Part shown: piece by piece, positions 46,912 to 49,001 of the stretch | How the letters are laid out: every line of letters starts with the position of its first letter | Numbering within the stretch: position 1 is the first letter of the stretch | Source of the DNA: Escherichia coli | GTDB lineage: Bacteria > Pseudomonadota > Gammaproteobacteria > Enterobacterales > Enterobacteriaceae | Assembly: GCF_003334335.1 (NCBI RefSeq) | Contig: NZ_QOWQ01000011.1 | Length of the DNA: 64,000 nucleotides | Reading direction: 5' to 3' (one strand) | The notes under the pieces: generated by a model | The model's input: the letters and a program-made list of their open reading frames with translations, nothing else | Database searches by the model: none | Told to the model about the DNA's origin: nothing | Position numbers and translations under genes: made by a program

Positions 46912-47811
46912 TTACGCAGAGAAAAAGGCGATGAGGAGCGGCACTAACAGGCTAAGAATAAAACCGTGAACAATTGCCGCCGGGACCATATCCAGCCCGC
47001 CAGTACGTTGAAGAACGGGCAGGGTGAAATCCATTGATGTGGCACCGCATAAGCCCAGTGCAGTAGAGCGGCTGCGGCGAATCAGCCCAGGGATCAACAT
47101 AATAGCAATCAGTTCACGGGCCAGATCATTAAAAAACGCCGCGCTCCCGATTACCGGACCAAAAGATTCGGTCAATAAAATACCGGAAAGAGAATACCAG
47201 CCGAAACCGGAGGCCATTGCCAGCGCGGTATTGATGGGGAGATCAAGAATAAAGGCGTTAATTAAACCACCAATTAATGAACTGACAACCACCACCACGG
47301 CGACAATCATTCCCCGGCGATTAAGGACAATCTGCTTTAAGGTCATGCCATTATTGCGCAACTGAATACCAACGAGGAAAAGTAGCAAAATTAACGTGTA
47401 TTCACTGGCTTCGGTCGCGTGTTGTAAGAAAGCCAGTCCACTTAGACCAATGGCAAAACCAATCACTACTACGCCGCACAGTTTTAGCGACTCCAGCGCC
47501 ATCGCAATACGCGACGGGAGTTTTTCTTGCTGATGGTGGTTGCGCCACGGCAGGCCTCGCTCCAGCCACATCAGGGCGGCAATATTACACAGTAAAATAA
47601 CGGTAATACTGACGGCAGAATAATGCAGAATCGCCAACAGGTTACTGGCGAGGTTATCGAGAAACGCCAGACTGATACCCATAAAAAAGAGAATAAGGTA
47701 AACCATCCAGCTTAATAGCTGATTAATAACTTTTAACGCAGCTTGTTGGCGAAGCGGAATGAGGTAACCCACAATCAGGGGAACCAGAATGATTAACAGC
47801 CCAGAAAACAT
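46912..47811 (-). CDS. lysO: L-lysine exporter
   Basis: Membrane ORF; I give the 299-aa form from ATG 47811 (MFSGLLIILVPLIVGYL...); the ORF track extends it to 47859 (315 aa), so the start is uncertain. K-12 name ybjE. Confidence 0.85.
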   Translation of the reverse strand: MFSGLLIILVPLIVGYLIPLRQQAALKVINQLLSWMVYLILFFMGISLAFLDNLASNLLAILHYSAVSITVILLCNIAALMWLERGLPWRNHHQQEKLPSRIAMALESLKLCGVVVIGFAIGLSGLAFLQHATEASEYTLILLLFLVGIQLRNNGMTLKQIVLNRRGMIVAVVVVVSSLIGGLINAFILDLPINTALAMASGFGWYSLSGILLTESFGPVIGSAAFFNDLARELIAIMLIPGLIRRSRSTALGLCGATSMDFTLPVLQRTGGLDMVPAAIVHGFILSLLVPLLIAFFSA

Positions 47812-48265
47812 GAAAACCCAGTCCTTGCAAAGATGAAGTCGAAATGCGCGATGACACACTACTGAAAGCGGAAGGACGAGTAAAGTTGCAATTAAAAGGA
47901 AATGTTATGCATAAGGAGCAGTAGAGTATTCGTTTTCATTTAAAGATATTCTTGCGCTTTAATTACAAACTGCACCGATGTTGGTGGCGTCAAAATCGCC
48001 GAGGCGTTCCCTGAAGGCCGGGGCAGCCCACATGGATGTGGGCTGAGGGCGCGTTTTACAGGGATGTTACCTCGCGCCCGACCCGGTAGCCGTAAGGGAT
48101 AAGTCGAGGGCACCGCGCAGCGGCGATTTTGTTCGCCAGAGCCCGGGGGTGCAGGGGGCGGCGGCGATTGGCCGCCCCCTGCGCGCTCCTTGCGCCAGTG
48201 GCAATATGTTGCTTAGCTCATGAAAGGAGCGCAACAAGATGATGAATCAACATATAACAACATCT

Positions 48266-48296
48266 TAAAAAAAGGCCTGACATTACGCCAGGCCTT
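48266..48296 (-). terminator. Rho-independent terminator after aqpZ
   Basis: Stem aggcctg / caggcct followed on the minus strand by a U-run (plus aaaaaaa at 48267..48273). Confidence 0.6.
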
Positions 48297-48305
48297 CTGC
48301 GTTAA

Positions 48306-49001
48306 TTAATCACGCTTTTCCAGCAGGGTCCGGTAAATCAGACCACCGATAATGCCGCCGACAATTGGCACCACCCAGAAGAACCACAGTTGTTCTAATG
48401 CCCAGCCGCCCTGGAAGATAGCAACCGCGGTGCTGCGCGCCGGGTTAACAGAAGTGTTAGTCACCGGAATACTAATTAAGTGAATCAGGGTTAAGGCCAG
48501 ACCAATAGCGATCGGCGCAAAACCTGCCGGCGCGAATTTGTCGGTTGCGCCGTGGATCACCAACAGGAAACCTGCACTCAATACCAGTTCAACTACCAGC
48601 GCGGAAAGCATGGAATAACCGCCTGGTGAATGCTCGCCATAACCGTTAGAAGCAAAACCGCTGGCTGCCGCGTCAAAACCCGTTTTACCACTGGCAATTA
48701 AATACAGCAGCGCCGCTGCAACAATACCGCCGACAACCTGGGCAATTACGTAGCCAACGACTTCTTTTGCCGGAAAACGTCCGCCAGCCCATAAACCAAT
48801 AGTGACCGCCGGGTTAAAATGACCACCAGAAATATGACCAACAGCAAAGGCCATCGTCAGAACGGTCAGACCGAACGCCAACGCCACGCCGGCAAAACCA
48901 ATGCCTAATTCCGGGAAGCCTGCGGCCAGTACAGCACTACCACAGCCACCAAAAACAAGCCAGAAAGTACCAAAACATTCAGCTGCTAATTTTCTGAACA
49001 T
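48306..49001 (-). CDS. aqpZ: Aquaporin Z water channel
   Basis: 231-aa product from ATG 49001 ([17 protein letters not shown]...), two NPA motifs ([14 protein letters not shown]). Confidence 0.93.

Follow-up and report, generated by a model that had tools for sequence, protein, structure and literature searches.

A consensus Shine-Dalgarno sequence next to the aqpZ terminator of Escherichia coli is one arm of a covarying hairpin in the repeat TRIP1a/RRS-lysO, and the nine-codon frame that follows it is probably a by-product

The AAGGAG that precedes a nine-codon open reading frame (mini-ORF) between lysO and aqpZ of Escherichia coli sits within TRIP1a, alias RRS-lysO, a known GC-rich repeat, at the 3' end of that repeat. 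The explanation that we prefer, with a probability of about 0.8, is that this Shine-Dalgarno (SD) sequence is a structural arm of TRIP1a/RRS-lysO, that the ATG lies at the edge of the element, that the reading frame is a lineage-specific junction, and that a published ribosome footprint at the site reflects opportunistic initiation on rare plus-strand RNA. The basis for this explanation is membership in the repeat, a terminal stem with covariation, lack of conservation of the ORF, and convergent neighboring genes. We infer that neither the peptide nor its translation is under selection for a function. The finding itself is already known, the element being a member of TRIP1/RRS and the ORF having the profile of pervasively translated small ORFs (sORFs); the SD-like arm, the ATG, the mini-ORF, and the Ribo-RET signal at the end of the element go unmentioned in the TRIP1 and RRS papers examined.

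Local layout of the mini-ORF

The window, a stretch of 64,000 nucleotides from contig NZ_QOWQ01000011.1 (assembly GCF_003334335.1), is K-12-like E. coli, and a window coordinate equals the MG1655 coordinate minus 867,046. As read from the sequence, AAGGAG occupies 48224-48229 on the plus strand and is followed by the 9-nt spacer CGCAACAAG and then by a tandem ATG at 48239-48244. The immediate surroundings are as follows.

46912-47811, minus strand: lysO
48239-48268, plus strand: mini-ORF of nine codons, ATG ATG AAT CAA CAT ATA ACA ACA TCT TAA, encoding MMNQHITTS-stop
48267-48299, minus strand: intrinsic terminator of aqpZ, a hairpin plus U7 with a predicted fold of -19.5 kcal/mol
48306-49001, minus strand: aqpZ

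The terminator stem consists of AAGGCCTG (48272-48279) and CAGGCCTT (48289-48296; inverted repeat I11). The stop codon of the mini-ORF (48266-48268) overlaps a run of seven A residues at 48267-48273, and its TAA is thus supplied by the complement of the aqpZ terminator U-tract. The first ATG lies 1 to 2 nt beyond the boundary of the repeat, and the body of the ORF lies in the lineage-specific junction. The coordinates that the earlier note had given for the SD, its spacing, the tandem ATGs, MMNQHITTS, and the TAA in the A-run of the aqpZ terminator proved exact, and both neighbors, lysO and aqpZ, are on the opposite strand, as it had stated. It had overlooked that the SD is part of a repeated element whose 3' edge is at the first ATG.

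Two other short ORFs share these bases, one of 29 amino acids at 48220-48309 on the plus strand and one of 21 amino acids at 48218-48283 on the minus strand; both lack an SD and a listed Ribo-RET footprint. The curated annotation of MG1655 has no feature at the mini-ORF, though it includes the 8-amino-acid YmdG. A scan of the plus strand upstream of the mini-ORF found no sigma-70-like promoter. Searches for aqpZ, lysO, and nearby coordinates in the 3'-end maps supplementing Adams et al. 2021 and in the SMRT-Cappable-seq supplements gave nothing relevant to a plus-strand transcript.

The pattern AAGGAG-N5-10-ATG occurs five times in the window against 2.39 expected, and five or more occurrences were found in 10 of 100 shuffles. 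The five sites open ORFs of 317, 107, 322, 37, and 9 amino acids, the last being the mini-ORF. The bare SD-ATG pattern was rejected as a statistical signal, five against about 2.4 being within chance.

Identity of the repeat

TRIP1 repeats are the subject of Rudd 1999 and of Li et al. 2024 (PMC10888264); the latter describe TRIP1a as 266 bp long, at a distance of 70 bp from the stop codon of aqpZ and 158 bp from the start of lysO (ybjE). The expected G+C content of the repeat is 62-65%. The replication risk sequence (RRS) is a near-perfect 222-bp GC-rich repeat pair at lysO and dusC, each copy 650 kb from dif. It acts at the DNA level, through a plus-strand G-quadruplex (G4) that blocks polymerases and leads to lagging-strand post-replication gaps, and experiments have linked it to RecA/SSB loading (Pham et al., PMC10287960, PMC11194060). 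The corresponding features of the window are as follows.

47970-48235, plus strand: TRIP1a, 266 bp, 65.0% G+C, placed by applying the offsets of Li et al. 2024 to the window
47981-48202, plus strand: most likely extent of the 222-bp core of RRS-lysO, the span in which TRIP1a and TRIP1c of K-12 share 218 of 222 positions
48145-48164, plus strand: G-quadruplex motif GGGGGTGCAGGGGGCGGCGG, an exact match to the motif from Pham et al. 2024

All sequence features that define TRIP1a were found, namely, the locus offsets, the length, the G+C content, the copies at dusC-yohP and putP-efeU, and a G4 on one strand. The G4 motif is absent from the minus strand of the element, and on the plus strand it overlaps a hairpin formed by 48151-48162 and 48171-48182 (inverted repeat I2). 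K-12 TRIP1a and TRIP1c, the latter inverted between yohP and dusC, are identical at 251 of 266 positions (94%), and TRIP1b at putP-efeU is a partial copy with an internal deletion. A BLAST search with the lysO-aqpZ spacer found the element in all 5,426 complete E. coli genomes, with a median of 3 copies and up to 9; the extra matches span about 47944-48246. The 222-bp core most likely includes the arm that pairs with the SD and ends 22 nt before the SD. The SD is thus part of TRIP1a and most likely 22 nt past the RRS core.

The element itself shows no difference from TRIP1/RRS as described (Rudd 1999; Li et al. 2024; Pham et al. 2023, 2024). Like REP/BIME sequences, it is a GC-rich, hairpin-forming intergenic repeat that is usually located just downstream of convergent genes and is linked to chromosome topology. 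However, TRIP1 is far longer and far rarer than REP/BIME (1 to 9 copies versus hundreds), is unrelated in sequence, and contains a G4.

The terminal hairpin explains the SD

The SD-like sequence belongs to a hairpin that closes the 3' end of TRIP1a.

48183-48232, plus strand: TRIP1a terminal hairpin, a 9-bp outer stem plus an inner stem-loop, predicted at -22.4 kcal/mol as RNA and -13.2 kcal/mol as DNA
48183-48191, plus strand: anti-SD arm GCGCTCCTT, the 5' arm, which pairs with the SD and shows compensatory changes across copies
48224-48229, plus strand: SD-like AAGGAG, within AAGGAGCGC (48224-48232), the 3' arm

The two arms form a 9-nt inverted repeat (I8) with 100% complementarity, the anti-SD arm being 33 nt upstream of the SD arm. 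In the predicted RNA fold of the element the SD arm is paired with a probability of about 0.82.

Conservation of this stem was evaluated in an alignment of 21 distinct copies from E. coli, other Escherichia, Kluyvera, Pseudocitrobacter, and two further enterobacterial genomes, including a metagenome-assembled genome. The consensus fold of the 21 copies retains the terminal stem (columns 222-227 paired with 264-269); 95.2% of its cells are paired, and both sides are changed in three of the six pairs. The covariation score of the stem was reached by none of 500 shuffles, and a control in which the partners were slid by 1 to 3 columns gave no compensation. Two divergent Escherichia copies (L015 and L031) have CGTTCAC/GTGAACG, which keeps the stem and loses the SD motif. 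In TRIP1b, in Klebsiella, and in the Kluyvera-type copies L032 and L022, the stem is CTCCCT/AGGGAG. Since the divergent copies combine an intact stem with the loss of the SD motif, selection acts on the pairing of the terminal stem rather than on ribosome binding. The consensus SD is a chance spelling of one stem arm in E. coli TRIP1a and TRIP1c. The argument that an optimally spaced consensus SD would hardly be idle is not supported, since the SD is explained as an arm of a covarying stem and related copies lose the SD and keep the stem. Pairing could matter in single-stranded DNA or in RNA; G-U pairs on the plus strand of the stem alignment correspond to A-C mismatches on the opposite strand.

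The arrangement has a likeness to hairpins that sequester an SD, such as riboswitch expression platforms and RNA thermometers, in which the SD is likewise paired with an upstream sequence in a stable, covarying stem, with the start codon just outside. The pairing of SD and anti-SD was found here, but a regulated downstream ORF was not. The end of TRIP1, unlike those hairpins, has no regulated downstream gene, and what follows it is an ORF of 2 to 27 codons that is unrelated between copies and often absent.

Start codon and frame across copies and strains

The start codon and the reading frame are not conserved between copies and strains. What follows the SD arm, or the SD end of the element where it is inverted, is listed below.

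TRIP1a in K-12, Nissle, ST131, and Escherichia sp. E1V33: MMNQHITTS-stop
TRIP1a in E21, ECO2R, O169, and SCPM: first ATG changed to AAG plus a 10-bp deletion, giving MNQYI-stop
TRIP1a in E. albertii: ATA in place of the second ATG; ORF cut off by the end of the contig
Inverted TRIP1a in E69: MLSSQIE-stop, SD end towards lysO
Inverted TRIP1a in O157: MLNTHIELKIPL-stop, SD end towards lysO
Inverted TRIP1a in UTI89: ACG and no ATG, SD end towards lysO
TRIP1c in K-12: MRD-stop
TRIP1c in O157, E1V33, and E. whittamii: ORF of 26 to 27 amino acids, antisense into the 3' end of dusC
Pseudocitrobacter copy: ML-stop
TRIP1b, alx copy, copA copy, and Klebsiella: no ATG

The K-12-type allele, comprising SD, ORF, and terminator, is present in 3,571 of 5,426 complete E. 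coli genomes. Among 60 evenly spaced genomes, the aqpZ-side junction is of the K-12 type in 39 and of the deletion type in 6, and in 14 it shows no relation beyond the stop codon of aqpZ. The earlier note had proposed a conservation check on the peptide; the frame is not conserved at orthologous loci, and paralogous copies have unrelated ORFs or none.

One observation counts against the preferred explanation. An ATG or GTG lies 6 to 12 nt past GGAG in 16 of the 21 distinct copies (ATG in 15, GTG in 1), despite different flanks, and in the majority of the full-length copies from Escherichia, Kluyvera, and Pseudocitrobacter. This recurrence exceeds the expectation for a random tail, and the start codon could belong to the conserved terminus of the element.

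The 26- to 27-amino-acid ORF at yohP-dusC, M(M)KLNKRFIVSDKLRFHYYRSLSISIA-stop, was found at three loci (L001, about 2790-2875 on the plus strand, L024, and L029). The species differ in it by a few substitutions only. It runs antisense across the 3' end of dusC, and its conservation may just reflect dusC.

Ribosome footprint at the first ATG

A re-analysis by Stringer, Smith, Mangano, and Wade (bioRxiv 10.1101/2021.07.02.450978, Table S1) of the Ribo-RET reads of Meydan et al. 2019 lists an initiation-enriched footprint of 2.22 RPM on the first ATG in E. coli BL21, with the peptide MMNQHITTS-stop. The footprint, of sequence ATGATGAATCAACATATAACAACATCTTAA, lies 14 nt downstream of the first ATG. 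Computed from the RPM unit of the table, 2.22 RPM is about 14 reads; the start of the neighboring ybjD has 51.3 RPM in the same list (bioRxiv 10.1101/2021.07.02.450978). The list comprises 7,936 putative starts with an estimated FDR of 11.7%, of which 2,545 match annotated ORFs, and its authors conclude that most novel sORFs are without purifying selection (bioRxiv 10.1101/2021.07.02.450978). The supplements of PIRT-seq held no match for the mini-ORF.

The site is therefore not silent, and the published footprint counts against the view of an idle by-product. Retapamulin start mapping, which had been suggested as a check, shows that ribosomes can find the first ATG in BL21, with a weak peak. 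Like the non-conserved sORFs of the Ribo-RET list (Stringer et al. 2021), the mini-ORF is intergenic, very short, non-conserved, and thinly covered by reads, and the weak footprint fits pervasive, non-selected translation. It differs from the sORFs of that study in that its SD is predicted to be base paired, whereas their confirmed starts lie in regions of reduced structure. A 15-codon ORF, MINSPENMKTQSLQR-stop, antisense to the lysO start at 47789-47836 on the plus strand, has a Ribo-RET footprint of 1.43 RPM in BL21. Because of this footprint on an antisense ORF, some plus-strand RNA appears to enter the region upstream of TRIP1a.

Genomic context of the element

Beyond the SD end, the nearest real gene is convergent in nearly all copies, at a distance of 29 to 147 bp (aqpZ, dusC, putP, alx, copA-like, and others); for TRIP1a, with 48245 taken as the end of the element, aqpZ is 61 bp away. 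A leader or upstream-ORF role is excluded for the mini-ORF because the next gene, aqpZ, is convergent, and nearly all other copies are alike in this respect, so the suggestion of a leader-type peptide does not hold. Room for a separate terminator between the convergent gene and the element is often absent. Read on the other strand, the element may form the 3' structure of the transcripts of the convergent genes.

In E69, O157:H7, and UTI89, the element is inverted in place at lysO-aqpZ, and the inversion maps the ends of the element to 47962/3-48237 of the window. O157:H7 and UTI89 had been expected to lack TRIP1a and were considered as candidates for an empty lysO-aqpZ site; neither is empty, and both carry an inverted TRIP1a. 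Opposite orientations at one intergenic site also occur at yohP-dusC (L001 versus L006). The short flanks differ completely between such strains; at lysO-aqpZ, for example, the inverted-type strains lack the K-12-type aqpZ terminator hairpin. The UTI89 copy of TRIP1a has an internal deletion like that of TRIP1b, and in O157:H7 FRIK2069 (L036 904-1599) aqpZ is annotated as a pseudogene with an internal stop.

The constitutive RpoD promoter of ybjE/lysO found by genomic SELEX is TTGACG-19-TGTAAT (Shimada 2014). Its -35 hexamer (47988-47993, minus strand) lies inside the 5' end of TRIP1a, and its -10 hexamer (47962-47967) lies 3 nt outside TRIP1a as placed by the offsets of Li et al. 2024, where the segment found inverted in other strains begins or ends. 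Because the hexamers lie in or at the edge of the element, strains with an inverted or deleted element would have an altered lysO promoter context.

In E. coli O169:H41 (L013 1-1200), a transposase gene of the IS110 family lies inside TRIP1a at about window position 48060, and TRIP1a resumes after the insertion at ATGTTACCTCGCGCCC, within the second AYGGAY-type hairpin; this insertion may exemplify targeting of the repeat. Relatives in Klebsiella occur at 13 places in one chromosome-sized K. pneumoniae record and as single copies on plasmids of 33 to 275 kb, although the matches to the plasmid collection are mostly chromosome-sized records. These Klebsiella elements lack an ATG, and compensatory changes are seen both in their hairpin 1 (GCCCGCAUGGAUGCGGGC) and in their terminal stem. 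No phage relatives of the element were found. A weak 13-nt, 85% inverted repeat (I3) brackets the element; it was rejected as a transposon-like terminal repeat, its left arm being outside the segment that inverts in E69 and O157.

Resemblance to TwoAYGGAY RNA

The 5' two-thirds of TRIP1 is similar to TwoAYGGAY RNA (RF01731), which is also multicopy in gammaproteobacterial genomes. That RNA was described by Weinberg et al. 2010 as having two AYGGAY loops and a very long P1, with many Psychromonas copies in the alignment.

47990-48129, plus strand: TwoAYGGAY-like domain, a long closing stem plus two hairpins with the loops AUGGAU and AGGGAU

A long P1 is likewise predicted for TRIP1 by folding. 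The E. coli copy scores 30.6 bits against the full RF01731 model (1-168), which is below the Rfam gathering score of 43. Kluyvera copies of the element (L021 9515-9676, plus strand, and L032 3847-4011, minus strand) pass the threshold over the full model, with 54.2 and 44.6 bits. Core-only hits to the two hairpins of RF01731 occur nearby in the opposite orientation (L032 4104-4167, L019 2218-2281, L022 1594-1657, and L021 9360-9423). Loop 1, AUGGAU, fits AYGGAY; loop 2 does not in E. coli (AGGGAU) but does in one Klebsiella copy (ACGGAC). In contrast to these shared parts, the G4 hairpin and the SD hairpin of TRIP1 fall outside the Rfam model. No paper linking TwoAYGGAY to TRIP1/RRS was found: no RRS or TRIP1 paper came up when full texts were searched for the name of the motif, and the most recent RRS preprint is silent on it.

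Alternative explanations

One possibility is that ribosome loading matters independently of the peptide. The plus strand of TRIP1a and TRIP1c would then be transcribed into a structured RNA of the TwoAYGGAY class, and the SD-AUG at its 3' end a real start gated by the terminal hairpin; initiation or short translation would be useful in itself, for example by unfolding or stabilizing the RNA or by clearing R-loops at the RRS, and the peptide would be irrelevant. The Ribo-RET footprint on the ATG, the sequestration of the SD in a covarying stem as at regulated starts, the recurrence of ATG or GTG 6 to 12 nt past GGAG in 16 of 21 copies with different flanks, G-U pairs in the stem that are specific to the plus strand, and Kluyvera copies above the threshold of an Rfam RNA family all speak for it. 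However, TRIP1b, the alx and copA copies, Klebsiella, and UTI89 have no ATG, the divergent copies have no SD, the footprint amounts to about 14 reads, and no plus-strand promoter or transcription start site was found. Furthermore, the function that has been demonstrated experimentally is exerted by the DNA, and the SD most likely falls outside the published 222-bp RRS. We consider this explanation unlikely. The broader proposal, that the terminus-flanking RRS/TRIP1 may also act as RNA and that ribosome loading at the gated SD-AUG is part of the working or the control of the element, is highly improbable; if it were true, the mini-ORF would be the outward sign that translation is coupled to an element of chromosome topology.

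It is quite unlikely that the SD-ATG is the fossil start of a lost gene, TRIP1 being derived from a mobile element or a gene's 5' leader. Such an origin would suit an element that reaches 8 to 9 copies in an E. coli genome and 13 places in a single Klebsiella record, is present or absent and in either orientation at one locus, is sometimes found on plasmids, is bracketed by the weak repeat I3, and has an ATG that recurs at its 3' boundary against different flanks. Yet a long same-strand ORF from that ATG was found at none of the 37 loci examined, there were no phage matches, the SD arm is fully explained by the stem, and the weak terminal repeat lies outside the inverting segment. The probability that MMNQHITTS has a function in E. 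coli, as a micropeptide or as a leader peptide, is next to negligible. It has a canonical SD at 9-nt spacing, tandem ATGs, and a weak Ribo-RET peak, and about two-thirds of E. coli genomes, as well as Escherichia sp. E1V33, share an identical allele, but closely related strains would be expected to show high identity in a short spacer anyway. In other lineages the change of ATG to AAG and the 10-bp deletion shorten the frame to MNQYI-stop, the frame is missing where the element is inverted, there is no downstream gene on the same strand, and the peptide is not in the curated MG1655 annotation, which includes 8-amino-acid proteins.

The preferred explanation, a structural SD arm followed by a frame of lineage-specific origin, can be stated as a sequence of proposed steps. 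The SD arm would be retained for its pairing with GCGCTCCTT and not as a dedicated ribosome-binding site. The reading frame crosses a short junction that is present in some E. coli lineages only and ends in the A-run of the aqpZ terminator. Occasional transcription of the plus strand would then allow the SD and ATG to capture a few ribosomes, which would give the weak Ribo-RET peak. The nine-codon frame is probably a variable by-product without function that is weakly touched by ribosomes.

Implications

For the annotation of E. coli and related genomes, the finding is a caution that an intergenic textbook SD plus ATG can be the arm of a structured repeat and that a weak retapamulin peak does not amount to a gene. 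For construct design, it is relevant that deletion of the 222-bp core would take the anti-SD arm away and leave the SD-ATG unpaired. The continuation of TRIP1a beyond the 222-bp RRS core with a third, covarying hairpin is a small addition for the RRS field. The resemblance to TwoAYGGAY RNA, if confirmed, could connect a so far orphan motif of Rfam with an element whose role at the DNA level has been shown by experiment.
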